This document shows, in pieces, positions 36,295 to 46,861 of a stretch of DNA of 64,000 bases. A program made the position numbers and the translations under genes. Where the stretch lies: the NCBI GenBank assembly GCA_937899865.1, contig CALBRH010000054.1, positions 1 to 64,000 of the forward strand, in the 5' to 3' direction. The notes beneath the pieces were generated by a model that did no database searches, was not told where the DNA came from, and was given only the letters and a program-made list of their open reading frames with translations. The first letter of the stretch is position 1. Each line of letters begins with the position of its first letter. The DNA comes from an uncultured euryarchaeote. GTDB lineage: Archaea > Thermoplasmatota > Poseidoniia > Poseidoniales > Poseidoniaceae.

Positions 36295-37299
36295 TTATCT
36301 TCGTCTTGTTGCGTTAATATCGATTCTTCGCATGTTCTTTTTCTTTTCAGATTTCTTTGACTTGCCTTTACTGACGAAATCTTCTCTACTTAAGCCACCA
36401 AATGTGATGCTGCCATTAGAAAGCAATGACTGTGCTAATTCATCTGCAACCTTCTCAGACTGTGCACCTGTTTGCATTTCTTGAGCGACTGCTGCATTGT
36501 GGTCGGTCAGCCAAGACTTTCTCTCTTCCCTTACTGATTTCAATTCATCTCTGGCCTTGTTAACATCAACCATCAATTCATCTATTTTGGCATGAACTTC
36601 ATTGGCTTTTTCCTTTAGTTCAACAAATTCTATATGGAATCTGTCGCCTTCCGACTTTAGGAAATCACGATGAGCAAATGCTTCATCTACTTCTGGAGTT
36701 TTAGCGTTGAGTCGCTCAACAGCTTGTATCATCTCATTATGGGCAGCATCTGCTTCAACCTTAAGAGTCTTAATAGCTGCGTCAATATCTGACATATCAA
36801 CCTCAACCATCTTGAATTTGGTTACTTCCGGTTCCAACTCTTCGATTCGCTTCGAAAATTCTTTGATTTTCTTAACCATTTCCTTTTCTTTATTTATACC
36901 AACTGAAGTTGTCTCAAATTTCTTCTCTAGTGAATCAACTTGTTGTTTCAAGTCAGCATATTCTGCAGTTGCAGAACGCTTGTTATTGTGATCTTTTCTC
37001 TTTCCCTTAATCTGAGAAATCAAATCTCTCATTTGGCTTTGAATTGTATTACGCTTTTCCTTGAAAGATTTAATCTCGGCTCGCATTGCTCTAACTTCAG
37101 TAACTAATAATTCGATTTTTACACGGTGCTCTTTGTATTGGCCTTGTACTGAATTTCTTTTCTCAGCAGAAACTTTTGCTTGAGCATTGAAATTGTTTCT
37201 TGTTTCACGCATCTTACGAACTTTAGTTTCCATTGCATGTAGTCTTTCACGTAAGTCTGCATCTGGCCTCTCATCGCCCTCATTCAGTCTACCGCGCAT
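36295..37299 (-). CDS. Archaeal coiled-coil protein (COG1340-like)
   Basis: Long heptad repeats with KRN/RD spacing and a central LEKKFETTSVGINKEKEMVKKIKE motif. Confidence 0.75.
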   Translation of the reverse strand: MRGRLNEGDERPDADLRERLHAMETKVRKMRETRNNFNAQAKVSAEKRNSVQGQYKEHRVKIELLVTEVRAMRAEIKSFKEKRNTIQSQMRDLISQIKGKRKDHNNKRSATAEYADLKQQVDSLEKKFETTSVGINKEKEMVKKIKEFSKRIEELEPEVTKFKMVEVDMSDIDAAIKTLKVEADAAHNEMIQAVERLNAKTPEVDEAFAHRDFLKSEGDRFHIEFVELKEKANEVHAKIDELMVDVNKARDELKSVREERKSWLTDHNAAVAQEMQTGAQSEKVADELAQSLLSNGSITFGGLSREDFVSKGKSKKSEKKKNMRRIDINATRRR

Positions 37300-38993: not shown

Positions 38994-39647
38994 TTAGATA
39001 ATTATCCTATCAGCAATTTCTTTGCTAAGTTGGACAGTCATGTCAGCAACCTGATACGAACCCTGTTCAATTGACTTAATCTCAGCCCCTACTGCAATAT
39101 TCAAATTATTCAAAAAATGTATGTCTGATTTACCTGCAACTATCATTTTGATAGTTGAAGATTCACCTTGAGAAAGTTGATTTAAATTTTTAAAATCTTG
39201 AATTGAAGTGTTTACTCTTGATTCAATATCTTCGGACATTGAAGGTATGGGAGTTCCACTTGGATCAATTTGAGGATTATTGAAGTATATTGTAAGAGCA
39301 ACTTCTAGGTCGTCATCAATCGCATGCTCTAATCTGCAAGCCGTAGCATGTTGATTTCCATCAAATGGTAAATGCTGTAGCAGAACTTCAGCTAATCGAT
39401 GGCGTCGCTTCATTTTTTTTCCATAAACCAACCCTTTGTCAGTTAACGTAGAGCCTTTGTATGGAATATATTCCAAGTAGCCCTTAGAAGCCAGTCTTTG
39501 AACCATTTCAGTTGTTGAAGCAGGAGTCACTCTAAGCGCTTCTGCTAAATCTCCTGTCCTAACTCTAGCATCAGGGTCTTTTTCATAAAATTGATACATC
39601 ATCTCAAGATACTCATCTTCAAATTCTTGAAAATGTCCTGCTGACAT
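38994..39647 (-). CDS. DtxR/MntR-family metal-dependent repressor with FeoA-like C-terminus
   Basis: EYLEMMY, DLAEALRVTPASTTEMVQRL, RRHRLAE, ACRLEHAI. Confidence 0.9.
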   Translation of the reverse strand: MSAGHFQEFEDEYLEMMYQFYEKDPDARVRTGDLAEALRVTPASTTEMVQRLASKGYLEYIPYKGSTLTDKGLVYGKKMKRRHRLAEVLLQHLPFDGNQHATACRLEHAIDDDLEVALTIYFNNPQIDPSGTPIPSMSEDIESRVNTSIQDFKNLNQLSQGESSTIKMIVAGKSDIHFLNNLNIAVGAEIKSIEQGSYQVADMTVQLSKEIADRIII

Positions 39648-39678
39648 GTTATCACCCTTATATTATGCATTATTGAAG

Positions 39679-42174
39679 TTAACCATCTTTTGACTTAAAA
39701 ATCATCTTACATGAGGGGCATCTAACTGAGCCATCGTATGATTCTGGGATTCTGAGACTTTGAGAACATTCTGGGCATGAAATCTCAACCTTTCCATCAT
39801 TAATATCCTCTATTAACTCCTCTTCTTCTTGAACTTCTTCCTCATCTATATCTTCTGAACCCACTTCGAAACTATGTGAACAATCAGGACATCTCACAGA
39901 ACCTTGATAGTTTTCAGGAACTCGAAGTTGTCTGGAACAAACTGGACAACTGATTTCAATCTTAACATCGGATAATTGAACAGACTCATTTTTGCGAGTT
40001 TTAACCTCTGACTTTGGCTTCTTTGGCTGTCTATTTGAATTCTCACGAATTCGAATCATCAAAATAATTAGAGAAGATACTGCTAATCCTCCCAATATTC
40101 CTGACCAAGGAATAGTAAAACTATCAGATGATTCCTCTGTGACAATTGATGAGAGGAAGATATTATCGATTTGCAGTGTATCACCACCATAATCCCACTT
40201 ACAATTTAGTCTAACTTCATCTCCTTCTGGCCAAGCAAAACTAAAGGAAATTGTTTTAGATGACCCTGCAGCAATCGGTGTTGTGCTTGATTCTGCAAGT
40301 TTAAATCCATCTCTATCATAAAGAATAATTGTTCCACTTTCACCTGTAATAGAGCCTTGATTTTCCAACAACACTGTCACACTAGCTGTTTCACCTGCTA
40401 CAGGACGGTTTGGATTCGATTGTGAATTGAAGCTGATTGTGTATTGAGGCCTATCTTGAGGTATAGATTTAGTAAATGAGGAGAATGAAGATTCTGATGT
40501 CCAATTTATCTCTTGAACTCTAATTATTACATACTCCGCATCTACAAAACCAAAATTGAATGTATCGCCTGAAGAACCTGCACTAATTGTCATGTCAACA
40601 TCATAAACAATCGTATCATCTAAGTTACTACCATATCCCAATTTCACATTTATCTCCCGATCTATACCTGATGATAGATTAACCAGCCAATTGGCTGTCA
40701 CTCCATCATCAATAGTCCATGAAACATCATATAATGACAGTTCAAAACTTTGCCTTTCCGAGACAGGAAGTAATATCTCACCAGATATATCATCAGCAAT
40801 TTCACCATCAGTTGAATATAGTGACCAATTAAACTGTTCCGTACCAGAAACTAATATTGGAACAGTAATCGTAACTTCACCGGCCTCATCTGGCCCTAAT
40901 GACACCATACTGCCTTGATAATTTCCTGCAGAGGATTCCATTTTTAGTGAAACATTACCTTGCTTTGTACCGGTATTTCTTACTAACAACGAGAATGTTG
41001 ATTCATCCCCTACATGCCATGGCCCATCAGTTGTTGAAGGCGTAAAACTACCCGCATACTCGAATAATGCCGATTCGACAGTAAATGTCTCCGTTGAAGT
41101 ATTAATCGATGATGGGTCAATTCTTTGACCTGACAAGTAACATACTAATTCACCAGGCTTCAAAATAATAGTAAAGTCTACATTTGTATTCGAAGATGAT
41201 TGAACAATTATTGCTGAATTATAAACAATTTCTTGATCGAATAAACAGGTCTTTTCACCTGAAAAATCAACAGTACCATTATTGTAAGTTTGTACTGTAA
41301 TCTCTAAATTTTCGCCAGAAACTAAATTCTGACCATCATAAACTATTGAAGTTTCTAAAATTGGTAGTGGTGGAGGATTAACACTAGCAGTGAAATTTTG
41401 AAAGTTATCTGTAATGTAATCATCTATGGTCCCATTTAGGCTTATCGATATCGAAAAGAAGCCCTCAAAAACTTGTACTGTTGAATTAAAATATACGATT
41501 TTTGTTGACATTCCATTGAGGTCAAATACCGCTGAAGATTGCTGTTCTGAGGTAATTCCGTTATCTAAAGATAAATTTACGCTTCCAGTCCAAAGATAAT
41601 CTCCGCTATTGATTATGGGAATTTGAAGCTGAACAAAATCTCCATCACTTAAGGAATAATTACCAGTTAATACAGAATTAGAATCAATCGATTCTAAGAT
41701 AATTGATGATTCTGGTGCTATTGAAATATTTAGCGGATTCAATCTATGAATCGTTCTTTGAAAATTCGAAATATCGTTTTGTGATTCAATACCTACATCA
41801 CCTGTCAAGCCGACTGAAATTATTGTGTAGCCATAATTCAATGATGTGAAATTATACGAAATCTCTTGTTGCACTCCCTCGACTAAATCATAAGATATGC
41901 TTGAGTTGATTAGTACGGTTCCATCTATGGCTGAGGCTTCAAAATAAACCTGCCCAACATAATTTACTCCAAGCCCTTCATCGGTTGAAGAAAGGTTAAA
42001 TTCTAATTCGAAATATGATTCATCGGTAGTTTGAAAGTCAACCAGGTTAATAGATTCTGATTCAATAGTAACTCCACCTCCACTTGCAGATGCTATAGGA
42101 GCATTAAATAGAAATAAAAAAGTCACAAAAATAGCAAAAAATGTAACATAATTCCTGTTACAATCACCCGCCAT
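39679..42174 (-). CDS. Surface protein with CARDB/Ig-like domains, TM anchor and two cytoplasmic zinc ribbons
   Basis: Signal peptide; VRNTG and LENQG CARDB-like motifs; TM; CPVC..CPDC and CPEC..CPSC repeats. Confidence 0.75.
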   Translation of the reverse strand: MAGDCNRNYVTFFAIFVTFLFLFNAPIASASGGGVTIESESINLVDFQTTDESYFELEFNLSSTDEGLGVNYVGQVYFEASAIDGTVLINSSISYDLVEGVQQEISYNFTSLNYGYTIISVGLTGDVGIESQNDISNFQRTIHRLNPLNISIAPESSIILESIDSNSVLTGNYSLSDGDFVQLQIPIINSGDYLWTGSVNLSLDNGITSEQQSSAVFDLNGMSTKIVYFNSTVQVFEGFFSISISLNGTIDDYITDNFQNFTASVNPPPLPILETSIVYDGQNLVSGENLEITVQTYNNGTVDFSGEKTCLFDQEIVYNSAIIVQSSSNTNVDFTIILKPGELVCYLSGQRIDPSSINTSTETFTVESALFEYAGSFTPSTTDGPWHVGDESTFSLLVRNTGTKQGNVSLKMESSAGNYQGSMVSLGPDEAGEVTITVPILVSGTEQFNWSLYSTDGEIADDISGEILLPVSERQSFELSLYDVSWTIDDGVTANWLVNLSSGIDREINVKLGYGSNLDDTIVYDVDMTISAGSSGDTFNFGFVDAEYVIIRVQEINWTSESSFSSFTKSIPQDRPQYTISFNSQSNPNRPVAGETASVTVLLENQGSITGESGTIILYDRDGFKLAESSTTPIAAGSSKTISFSFAWPEGDEVRLNCKWDYGGDTLQIDNIFLSSIVTEESSDSFTIPWSGILGGLAVSSLIILMIRIRENSNRQPKKPKSEVKTRKNESVQLSDVKIEISCPVCSRQLRVPENYQGSVRCPDCSHSFEVGSEDIDEEEVQEEEELIEDINDGKVEISCPECSQSLRIPESYDGSVRCPSCKMIFKSKDG

Positions 42175-42263: not shown

Positions 42264-42953
42264 ATGACACCCGAGGACTTACTACGTGTTGAGCCAGAAG
42301 TCCTTGCAAAATTAATTCTCCACAAACGAGAAAGAATTTCACAATCACTACCAAAAATCATCGAATCATTAGGGGAAGAAAAGCACACTGCGGAGAATTT
42401 AGCACGAAAATCAAGAGCTGAAAAAGAAGACTTAGAGCCGAAGGTGAGTAACCTATACTATGAGCGAGCAAAGGTTGTTGCAGAACTCAATGACAAATTT
42501 GACACAATTAAATTTGAAAATGATGAAAAAGATAGGTTTGATGAAATTTCTGAAAAACTTAAGTCAAAACAAACGAGTGTTGAAAATTTTAATAAAATTC
42601 TTTCTGAAATCGTAGAACTTTGTTCAAAATATGGTGGAAAGATTGAGCAATTAACCTCATATAAATCTTCAATGAAGGCTAATGATGCATTATCCGAAAT
42701 AATTGATGATTTTGAAAATGCCAAAAACAGATGGAATGAAAATGAATCTAACAGACGCAGATTAGAATCAAAATTCACCAAACTATCTACGAATCTAAGA
42801 GATTCAAGTACCTCCAAAGATTATTGGCAAGATAAGTTGAATTCAGATTTTGAAGATTTATTGATTGATGCCAAACGTGTTGCTGAAGGAGGGCTTTCTA
42901 GTAGACAGCTGTCCCGTAACAATAAAGGTAAAAATAACTCAAGGAGGCCTTAA
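42264..42953 (+). CDS. Coiled-coil protein
   Basis: Heptad-rich ORF; likely start MTPEDLL; stop lies 1 nt before the proposed start of the nucleotidyltransferase. Confidence 0.7.
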   Translation: MTPEDLLRVEPEVLAKLILHKRERISQSLPKIIESLGEEKHTAENLARKSRAEKEDLEPKVSNLYYERAKVVAELNDKFDTIKFENDEKDRFDEISEKLKSKQTSVENFNKILSEIVELCSKYGGKIEQLTSYKSSMKANDALSEIIDDFENAKNRWNENESNRRRLESKFTKLSTNLRDSSTSKDYWQDKLNSDFEDLLIDAKRVAEGGLSSRQLSRNNKGKNNSRRP

Positions 42954-42954
42954 C

Positions 42955-45024
42955 TTGTTAGCAGATTTTGAACAATCAAATATTGATTTAAAATATCTAG
43001 TAAATTATGGATATGTGATAAAAGCAATCAAAGGTGATGAACTATTTAGCGAGACAAAAATAAGTTCTGATTACATCTCTAAACTTGAAAGCCAATTAAC
43101 TCTATTTGTCGAATCACAAAAAATTACCAAACCTCTAATTCAGCGAAGAAATGGTATCATCAAACACCTAAGGAAAATTTTGACAAACAAATTCATCAAT
43201 TCAAAACTATCCTCTTTTGGCTCCTTCGAGTCAGGGTTAAGCCTATCAAACGGTGATATCGATTTATGCTTAGAATTCAATGGAGAGTCCCCAAAGAAGG
43301 TTCTGAATAAAATCGCTAGAATGTTAAATCAAGATAGTATGAAAAATGTGAAATTAATCACTAATGCCAAAGTCCCAATTGTAAAATTTATTGATAGTCA
43401 ATCGATGATTCCTGTAGACATATCAGTGAATAACAATTTATCAGTTTACAATACAGAACTACTTCGAAGATATTGCGATGTCGATCCAAGGGTAAAACCA
43501 TTCATTCTAGCGATCAAGTATTGGGCTAGAAACAGAGGGATATGTGAACCAACATCTGGAACATTCTCATCTTATGCATGGACACTAATCGCGATAAATG
43601 CGCTGCAAACCATGCAAGAACCAGTAATACCTAACCTATGCACTAGAGATGGAACTAATGTTGTTGAGATTGATGGTCAAAATTATGATGTCTCTATGCA
43701 AGATGTTTCTAATTCTAAATTTATCTCGAAAAATAATGAAACTGTAGCCGAACTAATAATATCATTTTTCTCGAATTTAGCCACCAATTGGCCATGGGAT
43801 GATTTTGTTATTTCTGTTCGAGAAGGTGCACTTATTACAAGAAAGCAGAAAGGTTGGAATCATCAAAAACCCAAAATTAGCAATGCTATACAAGATAAAA
43901 AAATAATGCGTCTTGGTAAACACTCCCTTCCTGTAGAAGACCCATTTGATGAGATTCATGACTTGAGTATTGTTTTAGATGCTGAAGGAGTGTTTGAAAT
44001 TAGAGATGAAGTTTTACGTGCATATTCTTTGTTGCATGAATATAATAATTGGGAAACGATATGTGAAGTAAAATACCCTGAGTTAATTCCTGAATCACCT
44101 CAATTAGACCTTTTTGGCGACCTAAGAAATTTGTCAGAATCTGAAATTAAGACGGATTTGGAAAACTTATATTCTCAATTGAATATAGTAGAGAAAAGTG
44201 TATCTATTCGTGAAAGTGAGAGAAATGATGCAATAAGAATGTCAAAGGCTTTGAGAAGAAATGCTGAGTTAGCAAAAGAACAATCTGTACTATCATCTGA
44301 ATTAAGACCAAGAAGATCGCAAATCGATGAAGCTCAAAGTAAGCGAGATTCAAGTAACAATAACTACATACCCGTACATTTAATTGAGGATGAGTTACAC
44401 CGAACATATCACAACTTAACTAAGCAATCTGAAACTGGTATTGAATTATCATTTGAAAAAGAGAAGGCCTTATTTTCTTGGTTTTTTGAATTACAAAGCA
44501 TGCATGAACATGCTAAGATAACAAGAAAACACCATCGAGAATTTTTGCGATTGGTCAATCAACAAGAAAACGCAATTAATCATATTAAGGACATAAAGCA
44601 TGAAATCATCGATGTCAAAAATTTAGGGAATTTTAGAGACTTTGATGATTTAGCAAAAAGATTGCTTATTGAATTAAATCCTTTGAAGAAAGAACGGCGA
44701 AAACTCCGTCGTGAAGTTGGTCGATTAGAAGCATGGCTGAGAAAACAAAAACATACACCAAATAAGCAACAACATAAAAATCGAAAATCTCGAACTACGA
44801 GAAGAAAAAATGATACGAATGTTAAAGAAATCAAAAATAAAGTTATTTCTGGTGATTCCTTTTCCCTGCAAGACCTCGATTTATTACTGAAAAGTGGTGG
44901 GCTAAAATCTGTCAATAATCAATCTGATAATAATAAAAAAAGTAATAATCAAAAGACCAAGAAAAATAAACCTACTTTGCAACCACATAGAGGGAAAAGA
45001 GGCAAATCATCTAAAAATATTTGA
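42955..45024 (+). CDS. Cid1/TUT-family non-canonical terminal nucleotidyltransferase (predicted TUTase) fused to a COG1340-like coiled coil
   Basis: FGSFESGLSLSNGDIDLC, AKVPIVK, VDISVNN, YNTELL..Y...DPRVKP, IKYWAR, GTFSSYAWTL, KGW, VEDPFDEIHD. Proposed TTG start at 42955 follows AGGAGG; the ORF track opens at 42865. Confidence 0.85.
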   Translation: MLADFEQSNIDLKYLVNYGYVIKAIKGDELFSETKISSDYISKLESQLTLFVESQKITKPLIQRRNGIIKHLRKILTNKFINSKLSSFGSFESGLSLSNGDIDLCLEFNGESPKKVLNKIARMLNQDSMKNVKLITNAKVPIVKFIDSQSMIPVDISVNNNLSVYNTELLRRYCDVDPRVKPFILAIKYWARNRGICEPTSGTFSSYAWTLIAINALQTMQEPVIPNLCTRDGTNVVEIDGQNYDVSMQDVSNSKFISKNNETVAELIISFFSNLATNWPWDDFVISVREGALITRKQKGWNHQKPKISNAIQDKKIMRLGKHSLPVEDPFDEIHDLSIVLDAEGVFEIRDEVLRAYSLLHEYNNWETICEVKYPELIPESPQLDLFGDLRNLSESEIKTDLENLYSQLNIVEKSVSIRESERNDAIRMSKALRRNAELAKEQSVLSSELRPRRSQIDEAQSKRDSSNNNYIPVHLIEDELHRTYHNLTKQSETGIELSFEKEKALFSWFFELQSMHEHAKITRKHHREFLRLVNQQENAINHIKDIKHEIIDVKNLGNFRDFDDLAKRLLIELNPLKKERRKLRREVGRLEAWLRKQKHTPNKQQHKNRKSRTTRRKNDTNVKEIKNKVISGDSFSLQDLDLLLKSGGLKSVNNQSDNNKKSNNQKTKKNKPTLQPHRGKRGKSSKNI

Positions 45025-45078
45025 AGAGGTGATTAAATTTCCAACCTCCAGTGGATTTTAGGGCCAAAGCCAGAAGAA

Positions 45079-45513
45079 ATGCCAAAAAGCTGGCAATCAA
45101 AAATTACTGAATTATTCATATCTGAAACTGGTGAAAGTTATACAGAAAATACATTTAGAATGCTAAGTATACCCGAATGGTTTGGAAATAAAATCCTCAT
45201 AGACACTAGTCTCTATCCACTGCCAGAATCACTAATGGGAGTAATGTGGTCTAAGCCTTTATTGGAAAATCGGATTCGTATAGTAGCTTTAGTCATCGAT
45301 AAAAAAGTCCAAAATAATTCTCATGGGACAATGATACTTGATGATATAATTGGACACTCAAAATCTGAAGGTAAAATAATGATTCAGTTAGAAGTTCGTA
45401 AATCAAATATTAAGGCTCAAAAATTCTATTCTCGTCACGGCTTGAAAATAGAAAAGACACTTAAAAATTATTATTCAAACGAAGATGGATTTCTTATGGT
45501 AGGAAATCTTTGA
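45079..45513 (+). CDS. GNAT N-acetyltransferase (RimI-like C-terminal half)
   Basis: LEVRKSNIKAQKFY...NYYSNEDGFLM. Confidence 0.8.
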   Translation: MPKSWQSKITELFISETGESYTENTFRMLSIPEWFGNKILIDTSLYPLPESLMGVMWSKPLLENRIRIVALVIDKKVQNNSHGTMILDDIIGHSKSEGKIMIQLEVRKSNIKAQKFYSRHGLKIEKTLKNYYSNEDGFLMVGNL

Positions 45514-45553
45514 TTGTGACTAAAAATTATACACCCAACCGATATGACAAAGC

Positions 45554-45886
45554 ATGGAAGAGTTTGTAGTCTCCGACTTAATTGATTCAAGTTACATCCT
45601 CAGTGCTGCAATACTTGATGATCAAGGATTCGTTATCTCTTCAAAGCCTAATGATAGTAAAACCAAAGAGCAACTATCGAAGTTTGCTGAAATACTCTAC
45701 TCATCTGAAGATTATGACCAGACATCAATAATTACTGAAGAACGAATTATAATTATTCACAAATTGGTAAAAGATTTCACATTAGTCGTAGGATGTGAGA
45801 CAAATTCTAATTTAGGATTGTTAAGGAATGAAATTTCTAGCGCAGTATCTCGATTAAACACTTACTTCGATTCAACATCTCGTTAA
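45554..45886 (+). CDS. Roadblock/LC7- or profilin-like protein
   Basis: AAILDDQGFVISS...IIIHKL...LVVG...NLGLLR pattern, 110 aa. Confidence 0.6.
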   Translation: MEEFVVSDLIDSSYILSAAILDDQGFVISSKPNDSKTKEQLSKFAEILYSSEDYDQTSIITEERIIIIHKLVKDFTLVVGCETNSNLGLLRNEISSAVSRLNTYFDSTSR

Positions 45887-45991
45887 TCGATGGATTCATC
45901 CAAACAATTGATGATATCAAGCATTAAATGGGGGATACAGTTCGCCATAACAGTGTAAGGTGGGAATCTTGCACGCAAGGTGAGTATTGTA

Positions 45992-46861
45992 ATGAGCGAA
46001 ATTAATCAAGTTCTTGAGCAAAAAAAGAATATGGTAAATGAAAAAGCAACTAAATTCCGTGAGACACGAGACGAGTGGAACAAGAAATCCAAAACTCATT
46101 CTGCAGCAAGAAATGAATTAAATGCTGAAGTCAAAGAACTGATCGTTCAAGTTAGAGAGCAGAGAGAAATTAGAGAACAAATGAATGAAATGGTTCGTGA
46201 AAAGAAAGTTATTCGTCAAGAAGCAAATAAGAAAGTCAAAGAAATTAAATCTCGTATGGATTCATCAAGAGGCCCTGTAGAGCAAGATAATTCACGCGGT
46301 AAACGTGGCCAGAGACCTATTACTTCTCATCAACTCAGAAAAGAACTTGAAAGATTGGAAAGAGAATTCGAACAAGGTAGACACACCGGTAAGAATGAAA
46401 AGAAAGTTATGAAAAGAATGAAGGAAATAAGTTCCAAACTAAAACAAATGACTTCTATTGATGATAGTAATGAAGACATGAAAGGTCTTCGAGAAGAATT
46501 AAAAATTGCTCTTGCAGAACAAGAGGATGCTCATGAAGAAGTACAAACTGCTGCAAATGCTGCTCAAGAAGCACATGAATTAATGCTACAGTGGAACAAA
46601 GAAGTTGACAAGCAACGAGAAAAGGCGGAATCATGCCATAGAGAGTTACGCAAATCCAAGAAAGAAGCTGACAAAGCACATCACTTGTACATTGTATCTT
46701 TACGCTGCTTGCACTCAATACAAGACATGTCCGCTGCAATGTCTGGTAATGATGTAGAAGAAGGCGGTTCTAAGGCAAGAGTTGAGGTACAAGATTTGAT
46801 GACTAAATTGATGTCTGGAGATACTCTTTCTACTGAAGAATTGATGCAATTGCAAAAATAG
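45992..46861 (+). CDS. Archaeal coiled-coil protein (COG1340-like)
   Basis: RDEWN..RNELN..REQMN repeats, LRKELERLEREFE, C-terminal KLMSGDTLSTEELMQLQK; AGGTGAG RBS. Confidence 0.8.
   Translation: MSEINQVLEQKKNMVNEKATKFRETRDEWNKKSKTHSAARNELNAEVKELIVQVREQREIREQMNEMVREKKVIRQEANKKVKEIKSRMDSSRGPVEQDNSRGKRGQRPITSHQLRKELERLEREFEQGRHTGKNEKKVMKRMKEISSKLKQMTSIDDSNEDMKGLREELKIALAEQEDAHEEVQTAANAAQEAHELMLQWNKEVDKQREKAESCHRELRKSKKEADKAHHLYIVSLRCLHSIQDMSAAMSGNDVEEGGSKARVEVQDLMTKLMSGDTLSTEELMQLQK

Follow-up and report, generated by a model that had tools for sequence, protein, structure and literature searches.

A Cid1/TUT4-7/URT1-type terminal nucleotidyltransferase, most likely of eukaryotic origin, fused to a native coiled-coil protein in Marine Group IIa archaea

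Reviews of non-canonical poly(A) polymerases (PAPs) place these enzymes in eukaryotes only (e.g. PMC11646218), and our search of the literature found no paper on an archaeal Cid1/TUT enzyme. Among the closest described systems, the Schizosaccharomyces pombe poly(U) polymerase Cid1 is a stand-alone enzyme of ~400 aa without an accessory domain. Human TUT4 and TUT7 (ZCCHC11/ZCCHC6) are proteins of 1,500-1,650 aa that also contain an inactive extra NTase domain, zinc knuckles of the CCHC type and a module for interaction with Lin28, and Arabidopsis URT1 (UTP:RNA uridylyltransferase 1; PDB 6L3F, 6L8K, 7XS4) combines a single catalytic module with a long disordered N-terminal region that binds partners. 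Aspergillus CutA, which adds C/U, and metazoan GLD-2 (TENT2), which adds A, have the same fold. The Cid1 residues D330, E333 and H336 have roles in nucleotide recognition: H336 contacts uracil O4, an Asn acts as pyrimidine sensor and the acidic residues hold a water at N3 (PMC3479196). Asn is the usual residue at the His position in the PAPs of this family (PMC3479196), and GLD-2 likewise lacks the His.

We analysed a 64,000-nt stretch of contig CALBRH010000054.1 (GenBank assembly GCA_937899865.1), here called the window, from an uncultured euryarchaeote of the Poseidoniaceae. Its source genome is a metagenome-assembled genome (MAG) of 65 contigs that is 91% complete. Within the window, a single open reading frame (ORF) with a TTG start codon at 42955 and zero internal stops encodes a two-part protein that we call TENT-X (Table 1); one base separates its start from the stop codon of the upstream gene, Y. 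A preliminary description, made from the sequence alone, had listed peptides of a eukaryote-type nucleotidyltransferase here, and these held, all in frame +1 of one ORF and with every codon position exact: FGSFESGLSLSNGDIDLC from aa 88 (nt 43216; Asp101 at 43255, Asp103 at 43261), VDISVNN (Asp155 at 43417), VEDPFDEIHD (His335 at 43957), and YNTELL, DPRVKP, IKYWAR, GTFSSY and ITRKQKGW. Native base composition and archaeal neighbours, which it had also claimed, were borne out by GC (0.33) and GC3 (0.26), which match the adjoining genes, and by synteny. The end that it had given, 44040, failed as a gene end, with the ORF continuing to 45024; the description had covered the catalytic half only and had not recognised the remainder as a native archaeal protein.

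Table 1. Features of the TENT-X locus, in window coordinates
Feature	Position	Strand	Basis or remarks
TENT-X fusion gene, whole	42955..45024	+	689 aa + stop; single ORF
GGAGG, Shine-Dalgarno-like	42943..42947	+	8 nt 5′ of the TTG start; seen directly in the sequence
Catalytic module, Cid1/TUT4-7/URT1-type terminal nucleotidyltransferase, aa 1-380	42955..44094	+	Sequence, profile, AF2, Foldseek
Palm domain PF22600, aa 44-174	43084..43476	+	Pfam; carries F88-G89-S90, Asp101, Asp103, Asp155
PAP-associated domain PF03828, aa 264-335	43744..43959	+	Pfam; ends in the nucleotide-recognition motif EDPFDEIH
Module X, native Poseidoniales coiled-coil protein, aa 381-689	44095..45021	+	Stand-alone homologues in the same operon slot
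D[LI]FxDLR motif, aa 385-391	44107..44127	+	N-terminus of ancestral X; F387, D389, L390 invariant
Most conserved X block (EKEKALFSWFFELQSMH), aa 478-519	44386..44511	+	Conservation; predicted interface with Y
Gene Y, coiled-coil protein, 229 aa from ATG	42264..42953	+	Maximal ORF from 42192
RimI-like GNAT acetyltransferase	45079..45513	+	Third gene of the Y-X-GNAT unit; TIGR01575 58.6 bits, below cut-off
Two conserved co-oriented genes	45554..46861	+	~110-aa protein; DUF7121 coiled-coil protein

By family and fold, the catalytic half is a terminal nucleotidyltransferase of the Cid1/TUT4-7/URT1 type with conserved active-site residues. It has a Pol-beta palm inserted into a PAP/OAS1 substrate-binding domain, and both Pfam models are matched above their cut-offs (PF22600, 104 bits versus 27, E 8e-30; PF03828, 38.9 bits versus 22.6, E 1e-9). 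Against PDB sequences, phmmer returned TUT7 (5.2e-47, 164 bits), URT1 (6.3e-47) and Cid1 (1.5e-34), with URT1 the best full-length match (E 6e-47 over aa 62-365). A profile built from 21 archaeal members gave the highest PDB scores to TUT7 (297 bits), TUT4 (288) and URT1 (255). CutA (214) and GLD-2 (186) are next-best matches under these TUTases; Cid1 scored 203, and TUT1 (117), MTPAP (111), Trf4 (95) and canonical PAP (37) were lower. The AF2 model of the module is confident (pLDDT 92.6, pTM 0.93), and its top Foldseek match is again URT1 (7xs4, E 4e-24, TMt 0.91, identity 29%), followed by Cid1, TUT7 and CutA at TMt 0.79-0.85. The preliminary description had claimed Cid1/TUT4-7-type membership and proposed an HMM search and a structure comparison with Cid1 as checks; both were done, both are supportive, and the claim holds by HMM, profile and fold. 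It had named a best match to a CCA-adding enzyme, an MNT antitoxin or a CD-NTase as grounds for refutation, and we found none among the matches: no CCA enzyme appears among PDB matches of the module at E <= 1e-3, the class I CCA body domain tRNA_NucTransf2 (PF09249) has no Pfam match in TENT-X, and the MntA model reaches 13 bits against a cut-off of 60, below threshold.

The correspondence with the minimal core of Cid1 is residue for residue. Archaeal F88, S90, D101, D103, D155, N166, T167, K188, S206, Y207, D329, D332 and H335 equate to Cid1 F88, S90, D101, D103, D160, N171, T172, K193, S211, Y212, D330, E333 and H336, while Cid1 K197 is replaced by Arg192. The residues that contact UTP in Cid1 (N171, S211/Y212, D330, E333 and H336) are therefore all represented, as Asn166, Ser206/Tyr207, Asp329, Asp332 and His335, the last three lying in EDPFDEIH. 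The earlier claim of a His at the Cid1 H336 position held, as did, per PMC3479196, the role that it gave this His in UTP preference and the Asn of adenylyltransferases. URT1 shares the palm and PAP-associated core and an EDPFxxxHDL motif, the His of which aligns with His335 in an HMMER alignment, and the His and all NTP ligands are likewise conserved with TUT4/7. Across 40 archaeal family members, G89, S90, D101, D103, D155, N160, N166, S205, S206, Y207 and D329 are invariant (40/40), and position 335 is His in 35, Arg in four and Ile in one. The palm FGS and catalytic Asp, without variation in these 40, are nearly invariant over 85 archaeal and eukaryotic sequences. Position 339 is Ile in the window's own subclade and Arg in most family members and in Cid1 (R340). 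The archaeal protein differs from its eukaryotic counterparts in what surrounds this core: it has none of the additional modules of TUT4/7, with no CCHC domain found by Pfam search of the TENT-X protein, and in place of the N-terminal region of URT1 it has a C-terminal coiled-coil module.

TENT-X is an in-frame fusion in which the catalytic module is joined to the 5′ end of X, itself a native gene. Stand-alone X proteins (274-354 aa, typically ~335 aa) occur in Marine Group IIb (MGIIb), in the group that we label f2 and in some Marine Group IIa (MGIIa) genera (Poseidonia, g17 and g21), and occupy the same slot as TENT-X, between Y and the gene for the RimI-like GNAT. All 71 of 71 match aa 381-683 with E values of 1e-16 to 1e-30, and stand-alone X is the state in the outgroups and in the MGIIa genera that probably branch early. 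The stand-alone X of Thalassarchaeaceae (MGIIb), annotated 'hypothetical protein', is a direct homologue of aa 381-689; the two share the operon slot, DLFxDL start, FSFFFELQ block, RREVGRLEA motif and basic tail, and differ in that a short basic N-terminus stands in place of the fusion's TENT. Stand-alone forms begin M-S-(basic stretch)-GLFDDL. Because the D[LI]FxDLR motif, whose invariance was counted over 51 fused and stand-alone sequences, marks the ancestral start of X, the fusion junction lies just upstream, at aa ~376-384.

Module X (AF2 pLDDT 82) combines long helical hairpins with a basic linker and a small unit of three helices (SGxxLSxxDL), and its Lys/Arg tail is disordered. The residues conserved in its best-preserved block are E503, F507, F510, F511, E512, L513 and M516. 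It belongs to no Pfam family, and no PDB fold matches it significantly: Foldseek against PDB gave nothing beyond coiled coils of a generic kind (SMC arms, SH3BP5), all at E > 3e-3. Assignment to a known family was rejected. The neighbouring DUF7121 family of archaeal coiled-coil proteins (PF23435; DUF7121/COG1340) resembles X in its helical-hairpin shape (atlas TM ~0.35) and C-terminal SGxxLSxE(D/E)L motif; kinship is weak, with hhalign giving a probability of 59% (E 9e-5) over the last ~76 columns only. PF23435 has no match in the window's X module and a precomputed match in 3/71 stand-alone X proteins. BLASTP of X against the DUF7121 neighbour and against Y gave nothing significant, and hhalign of X against Y gave a probability of 4%.

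Gene Y, which has no Pfam family, lies upstream of TENT or X in all loci across three families, frequently with a 4-nt overlap, and its start at 42264 agrees with the family consensus MxPEELL. The GNAT is also native, being present at loci without TENT. Farther downstream, the ~110-aa protein has a faint Roadblock/LC7 match, and the DUF7121 neighbour has a C-terminal SGxxLSxEEL motif in common with X. X is predicted by structural modelling to bind Y: the Y-X complex reached an ipSAE of 0.66 in three runs, with 0.00 for the best control. Among solved complexes 58 of 80 score this high, compared with 2 of 110 mismatched pairs. Contacts were at least 90% concordant between runs, partner pLDDT was 78, and the interface coincides with the best-conserved stretches of Y and X (in X, residues 103-144 of the modelled segment). 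The prediction was made with our own alignments and is a model confidence score, without binding data.

The fused gene is long established in its host lineage. It is single-copy with constant synteny in seven genera (identity 34-92%), and full-length alignment with orthologues of 673-763 aa holds down to 34% identity. Both halves are under purifying selection: dN/dS against the closest species is 0.10, and the same value is obtained for each half. PF03828 scores above cut-off in 98/149 Poseidoniaceae genomes and 99/301 in the order, all in family f1, compared with 0/149 genomes of the sister family MGIIb, none in ~338 other Thermoplasmatota genomes (47 other families) and none in 14 control genomes. 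A motif scan of 185,579 prokaryotic species found 79 loci, without exception of Poseidoniales type. In a tree of X, the stand-alone proteins of Poseidonia nest with fused ones from the same genus (SH-aLRT 99), and most Poseidonia species keep X while the catalytic module is absent. After vertical inheritance in Poseidoniaceae, the module disappeared from most Poseidonia species. The gene also occurs in MAGs of 1.4-2.0 Mb labelled Salipiger, Rhodobiaceae, Salinimicrobium and Thalassarchaeaceae, but a spread to bacteria or MGIIb was rejected; we take these titles to be mislabels, and three of the MAGs match family f1 genomes by contig number and position.

The catalytic module is likely of eukaryotic origin, although the direction of transfer does not come from a rooted tree. 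In trees that also sample animals, fungi, plants, amoebae and red algae, the archaeal TENTs group as a single clade (support 100) on a long stem among the eukaryotic sequences. These trees are unrooted and lack GLD-2 or Trf4 outgroup sequences, so the direction rests on distribution and on the score gradient. FastTree puts the archaeal clade beside the animal TUT4/7 split (support 81-93), whereas a quick IQ-TREE run (LG+C20) puts it beside a red-alga-like group including Galdieria (84); because the two placements disagree and both are weak, we name no donor. Scanning IMG/VR with the catalytic alignment gave 70 motif matches with no relative among them, and within the limits of this two-motif scan there is no sign of a viral or giant-virus vector.

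Together, these findings support a main reading to which we give a probability of roughly 0.72: TENT-X contains a catalytically intact terminal nucleotidyltransferase, acquired once from a eukaryote and fused to X, that would tail RNA 3′ ends, probably with U. On this reading, the module most likely entered an ancestral member of Poseidoniaceae (Marine Group IIa) in a single event, and it became fused in frame onto X inside the conserved Y-X-GNAT operon. The enzyme would add non-templated nucleotides to RNA 3′ ends, an activity inferred without biochemical or expression evidence, and U is the most likely nucleotide because the set of UTP-contacting residues is present, which is likewise an inference. 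The coiled coil of X, its Lys/Arg-rich linker and tail, and its partner Y may supply RNA binding, assembly or targeting, a putative counterpart of the zinc knuckles or disordered regions of eukaryotic TUTases. Uridylation for decay, quality control or antiviral marking, as put forward in the preliminary description, remains inference, and the His is an imperfect predictor.

The most serious alternative concerns the nucleotide added. The same enzyme with the same history could be an adenylyl-, cytidylyl- or mixed-nucleotide transferase (GLD-2-, CutA- or NPOL-1-like), and this remains possible. The His does not guarantee U: it is present in human TUT1/Star-PAP, which adds A, and in NPOL-1 and MUT-2, which accept purines, and it is missing from some enzymes that do add U (bioRxiv 10.1101/422972). 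CutA outscores Cid1, the His is replaced by Arg or Ile in 5/40 members, and the source genome encodes Rrp41/42; exosome-containing archaea already make A-rich tails. Against this reading, the best sequence and fold matches (TUT7, TUT4, URT1) are verified U-adders, the full Cid1 UTP-contact set is retained (including the pyrimidine sensor Asn166), and it is Asn rather than His that PAPs of the family usually have. We consider it very unlikely that the substrate is something other than an RNA 3′ end, as in OAS/cGAS-like second-messenger synthesis or protein nucleotidylylation in defence or signalling. The PAP/OAS1 fold is common to OAS and cGAS, and Y faintly matches the coiled coils of the defence proteins DruC and LmuB (E 1e-4 to 1e-3). 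However, PADLOC matched only the generic NTase model PDC-S09 at 22 bits and zero CD-NTase models, no OAS, cGAS or CD-NTase chain appears in PDB matches (E <= 0.001) or in 30 Foldseek rows (to rank 50), and the operon holds a fixed core position in two families, unlike a variable island. Assignment to a defence system was rejected on the negative PADLOC result. There is even less to commend a catalytically dead scaffold, akin to the inactive domain at the N-terminus of TUT4/7. In its favour, most Poseidonia species do without the module and keep X. Yet the three catalytic Asp, the GS motif and the residues that bind triphosphate and ribose do not vary between genera whose proteins share 34% identity overall, and the low dN/dS also speaks against a pseudoenzyme.

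Two further objections bear on the gene's provenance. An ancient archaeal gene since lost elsewhere, be it a relic or even ancestral to the eukaryotic TENTs, cannot be excluded by topology alone, since the archaeal clade is monophyletic on a long stem and the root of the unrooted trees could lie there. We nevertheless regard it as very unlikely. The module is limited to part of one family and was not found in the others searched, it is an N-terminal add-on to a protein that stands alone in the outgroups, and its similarity is graded, peaking at TUT4/7 and URT1 and falling far below that for Trf4, MTPAP and canonical PAP, which fits an origin inside an already diversified eukaryotic family. Assembly or binning error, with a eukaryotic fragment mis-joined to archaeal DNA, is all but ruled out. 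We found nothing in its favour: the genome is a MAG, but contamination is 0.18% and base composition is native, and the fused ORF recurs with its gene order preserved in dozens of independent assemblies, among them CM001443.1, a closed single-contig MG-II chromosome of 2,064,136 bp. A chimeric assembly, which by the preliminary description would have refuted its claim, is not what we find, with gene and synteny recurring in about 100 genomes including this closed chromosome.

Eukaryotic acquisition followed by fusion to X remains our preferred reading, and a bolder version of it is possible, in which a eukaryote-style RNA 3′-uridylation pathway operates in an abundant marine archaeal family. 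The captured TUTase would be wired by fusion into the native Y-X complex beside a RimI-like acetyltransferase, and machinery acquired around the same node would read its U tails, a Poseidoniaceae-restricted RNase R/Dis3L2-like RNB exonuclease being the candidate reader. If true, the TUT-Dis3L2 decay axis would have been rebuilt convergently outside eukaryotes. The known eukaryotic U-tail readers are not evident in the source genome: no LSM (PF01423) was found in this 91%-complete assembly, and the RNB nuclease present is RNase R-like and only partly co-distributed with TENT. Replacement of the CCA-adding enzyme was rejected as a role for TENT-X, as PF09249, missing from searches of the source genome, was not found in MGIIb either (0/61 genomes in the order) and a separate class II CCA-type enzyme is present. 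The class I CCA enzyme, described in the preliminary account as the usual one in archaea, was thus not found in the 61 Poseidoniales genomes searched.

Cid1-type TUTases and U-tail-dependent decay are regarded as eukaryotic inventions, and here a module of this type has long resided, under selection, in Marine Group IIa, plankton that is abundant worldwide. The locus provides a clean, dated case in which a domain most likely passed from a eukaryote to an archaeon and was then joined to a native protein. Natural controls exist in MGIIb and most Poseidonia species, which have X without the enzyme, so non-templated 3′ tails could be compared between lineages in existing marine metatranscriptomes. 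If the inferred activity is real, the compact intronless enzyme may also serve for RNA 3′-end labelling. That archaea tag RNA 3′ ends in the eukaryotic manner is suggested by inference and is unproven; the fusion would give a first functional context, RNA 3′-end metabolism, to a hitherto uncharacterised coiled-coil operon of the Poseidoniales.

Members of Poseidoniaceae encode a TUT-type terminal nucleotidyltransferase (TENT) whose active site is intact and under selection; the module is fused to X, a coiled-coil protein native to these archaea, within a conserved operon (coordinates are collected in the table below). The preliminary description had recognized the Cid1-like motifs in a gene ending at 44040. 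That end did not hold, as the gene continues to 45024, and all 689 aa of its product can be aligned among orthologues. The remaining observations did hold: the motifs lie within one ORF, the peptides and codon positions are exact, and the Cid1 motif strings it gave agree with the numbering in PMC3479196, providing a consistency check on our residue mapping. The TTG taken as the likely start lies one base past the TAA of the upstream gene Y, has a GGAGG 8 nt upstream, and encodes the residue at which the orthologues' alignment begins.

Coordinates of the TENT-X gene, its neighbors and the additional enzymes discussed
Feature	Position	Strand	Remark
Further DUF7121-like coiled coil	36295-37299	-	
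CARDB protein and DtxR-type iron-dependent repressor with FeoA domain	38994-42174	-	CARDB protein of 831 aa with C-terminal zinc ribbons; divergent from operon
Conserved Poseidoniales unit	42264-46861		Y, X, GNAT, ~105-aa protein, DUF7121
Y, coiled-coil gene	42264-42953	+	
TENT-X, stop-to-stop frame	opens at 42865	+	
TENT-X, likely start TTG	42955	+	
TENT-X fusion	42955-45024	+	TENT, aa 1-380; X, aa ~381-689
Asp101 codon	43255	+	
Asp103 codon	43261	+	
Asp155 codon	43417	+	
His335 codon	43957	+	
RimI-like GNAT acetyltransferase	45079-45513	+	
RNB exoribonuclease, RNase R-like	L112:1051-3408 (locus on G000:C62)	-	785 aa
Class II CCA tRNA nucleotidyltransferase-like protein, bacterial-type	L121:661-2001 (locus on G000:C63)	-	

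The Cid1-type fold proposed from sequence alone was borne out by profile and structure searches. Two Pfam families score above their cut-offs, PF22600 (MTPAP-like central palm; aa 44-174, 8e-30) and PF03828 (PAP_assoc; aa 264-335, 1e-9). The best PDB sequence matches are human TUT7 (5.2e-47), Arabidopsis URT1 (6.3e-47), TUT4, CutA and Cid1 (1.5e-34), followed by GLD-2, TUT1, MTPAP and Trf4. A profile built from 21 archaeal TENT members gives the same ranking with a clearer gradient: TUT7 297 bits, TUT4 288, URT1 255, CutA 214, Cid1 203, GLD-2 186, TUT1 117, MTPAP 111, Trf4 95 and canonical PAP at most 37. An AF2 model of aa 1-385, computed from an 85-sequence alignment (pLDDT 92.6, pTM 0.93), finds URT1 as its best fold match (E 4e-24, TMt 0.91), then Cid1, TUT7 and CutA. 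NCBIfam and PADLOC searches of the protein returned nothing meaningful.

Across 40 orthologues, down to 34% identity, G89, S90, D101, D103, D155, N160, N166, S205, S206, Y207 and D329 are invariant. They correspond to the metal- and NTP-binding set of the Cid1 structures, in which the metal ligands are D101, D103 and D160, the triphosphate is held by S90, K193 and S211, and Y212 is the stacking tyrosine; N171 acts as the ribose/O2 'pyrimidine sensor', D330 and E333 are the acidic holders of the N3 water, and H336 contacts O4 directly, with the H336N mutation improving ATP use (PMC3479196). His335 occupies the H336 position and is kept in 35 of the 40 members. The others carry Arg (four) or Ile (one) in an otherwise intact active site (L011 of genus g19, L024 of genus g18, and P0125, P0127 and P0041), and could be natural specificity variants. 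Relative to the closest species, dN/dS is 0.10 for the TENT half and 0.10 for the X half.

The identity of the C-terminal half follows from synteny. Between Y and GNAT, two genera of the sister family Thalassarchaeaceae (MGIIb), a third family and Poseidonia carry a stand-alone protein of 274-354 aa that is homologous to the fusion's tail only; the tail is therefore the native protein X. Searching with the MGIIb X recovered 71 proteins of ~335 aa, labeled Thalassarchaeaceae, MGII or 'hypothetical', all of which match aa 381-683 of the fusion (E 1e-16 to 1e-30). Stand-alone X begins with Met-Ser, a short Lys/Arg run and GLFDDL, which corresponds to DLFGDLR at aa 385-391 of the fusion and thereby places the junction at ~aa 376-384. 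Invariant residues of this half are F387, D389, L390, E503, E587, G589, R590 and G680. No Pfam family covers X and no PDB entry matches it significantly; its model (pLDDT 82) shows long helical hairpins and a small three-helix unit, together with a linker and a disordered tail that are both basic. A link to DUF7121 is weak and local, consisting of a similar C-terminal helix motif, SGxxLSxE(D/E)L.

In TENT-less Poseidonia genomes, only residues ~380-667 of the Poseidonia orthologue find a match, in ORFs of ~300-450 aa. Stand-alone and fused X of Poseidonia group together in X trees (93-99 SH-aLRT) and have an internal deletion in common, indicating that the catalytic module was lost secondarily. 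In two further MGIIa genera, g17 and g21, X groups with the stand-alone side, and the fusion may thus have arisen within Poseidoniaceae after these genera split off. Because branches in the X trees are long, the order of these events remains inference. In one Poseidonia genome (locus L118, G070:C28), the stand-alone X match contains an in-frame TGA, possibly a pseudogene or a sequencing error.

X is also predicted to bind Y. Using our own alignments, complex prediction for Y and X (segment residues 5-285) gave an ipSAE of 0.66 in three runs, whereas the highest-scoring of three controls had 0.00. Among solved complexes, 58 of 80 reach the mark of the Y-X pair, as do 2 of 110 mismatched pairs. 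At least 90% of contacts agree between runs, partner pLDDT is 78, and the predicted interface joins the most conserved X block (aa 478-519, FSWFFELQ) to conserved N- and C-terminal parts of Y. The interaction is thereby supported rather than demonstrated. The unit of Y, X, GNAT, ~105-aa protein and DUF7121 is conserved in Poseidoniales with or without the TENT (loci L020-L032); its ~105-aa protein has a faint Roadblock match, and the divergent CARDB protein and DtxR-type repressor are both syntenic throughout the order.

The genome containing the gene is a 2.01-Mb MAG (91% complete, 0.18% contamination). The closest relatives (92% identity) are titled Candidatus Poseidoniaceae, MGIIa-L1, and the gene is also present in CM001443.1, a single-contig record of 2,064,136 bp titled as the chromosome of uncultured Candidatus Poseidoniales archaeon isolate MG-II. 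Atlas clusters are 100% Archaea, Thermoplasmatota. The survey of Poseidoniales MAGs that had been suggested recovered PF03828 from 98 of the 149 Poseidoniaceae genomes sampled, always as a single copy (by genus code: g1 45/48, g14 16/17, g15 19/19, g16 8/8, g18 3/3, g19 1/1, g13 6/43). No hit came from 149 MGIIb genomes, 2 of the third family, ~338 representing 47 further families in the phylum, or 14 control genomes. Scanning one genome per species across 185,579 prokaryotic species for GT[LF]SSY[ACT][YW][VTI][LCI] yielded 79 confirmed loci, all of the Poseidoniaceae TENT family; an IMG/VR scan for TENT relatives yielded none. Four MAG records of 1.4-2.0 Mb with the fused gene have odd titles: Thalassarchaeaceae (L079), Salipiger bermudensis (L098), Rhodobiaceae bacterium (L099) and Salinimicrobium sp. 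(L102). L079, L099 and L102 coincide with Poseidoniaceae genomes in contig number and position and are likely mislabeled, as is L098 on the weaker basis of MAG size and ORF length only.

Several alternative readings had been raised or can be envisaged. A chimeric assembly of neighboring genes is excluded by identical gene order at ten loci from seven genera: CARDB/zinc-ribbon (minus strand), Y, TENT, GNAT, ~105-aa protein, DUF7121 and PurP, with frequent 4-nt overlaps at the Y/TENT and TENT/GNAT borders. A best match to CCA-adding enzymes, MNT or CD-NTases would also have refuted the assignment, and none of these was among the PDB matches of the archaeal profile. The TENT might instead replace a missing CCA enzyme. 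We reject this reading: searching 61 Poseidoniales genomes, MGIIb included and 60 with a completeness of at least 90%, recovered no copy of the archaeal class I domain PF09249, and a class II CCA-type protein is encoded (PF01743, 114 bits; NF009814, 238 bits, below cut-off).

By inference, the TUT-type enzyme would tail RNA 3′ ends, with X, Y and the basic tails providing RNA binding, oligomerization or localization. The uridylation originally proposed is still inference: from the His/Asn/Asp constellation we lean modestly towards U as the preferred nucleotide (roughly 0.55-0.6), given exceptions to the His-U rule (bioRxiv 10.1101/422972). Exosome subunits Rrp41/42 are encoded by neighboring genes of the same genome (contig C51), which has its third RNase PH domain on contig C48; Sm/LSM (PF01423) was not found in a six-frame search of this 91%-complete genome. 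For the RNB protein, the closest matches are to RNase R (2.5e-51) and to Dis3L2 (2e-36), with NCBIfam RNase_R at 319 bits, below cut-off. Its gene is essentially restricted to Poseidoniaceae in the order sample (84/101, vs 2/63 in MGIIb; g13 27/29, g14 3/11, g18 0/2). Co-distribution with the TENT is only partial: Poseidonia has the RNB gene, most g14 and g18 genomes gave no hit for it, and g17, g20 and g21 gave no hit for either gene. The RNB gene seems to have been gained near the same node as the TENT, with different later losses, and the nuclease is a possible tail reader, nothing more.

When 1.84 billion representatives were searched, the top ranks (at least 214 bits) went to the archaeal family and the ranks directly below to eukaryotic proteins, the named ones being mollusc and spider TUT4/7, coconut URT1, a Balamuthia 'RNA uridylyltransferase', chytrid, zygomycete and ascomycete enzymes, and proteins of Fabomonas, Filamoeba, Pigoraptor, Galdieria and Prasinoderma. 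Phylogeny with eukaryotic TENTs, also suggested beforehand, places the archaeal sequences in one clade (support 100) on a long stem (0.8-1.1) in both trees, with its position among eukaryotic groups unresolved and method-dependent. The inferred direction of transfer, from a eukaryote to the archaea, rests on the very narrow archaeal range versus near-universal eukaryotic presence, the graded similarity across TENT subfamilies, and the TENT being an add-on to a gene that is unfused in the outgroups.

The enzyme family itself is well known. Its archaeal presence, long residence and fusion architecture were not reported in the full-text literature searched, and database entries for TENT-X carry the name 'hypothetical' or an automatic 'DNA polymerase sigma' label. 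New here are the syntenic proof that the tail is native X, the position of the junction, the TENT's loss in Poseidonia, its distribution at family level and the predicted Y-X complex. TENT-X, with its function inferred from sequence and predicted structure, is a real feature and should greatly interest those who study RNA biology or inter-domain gene transfer.
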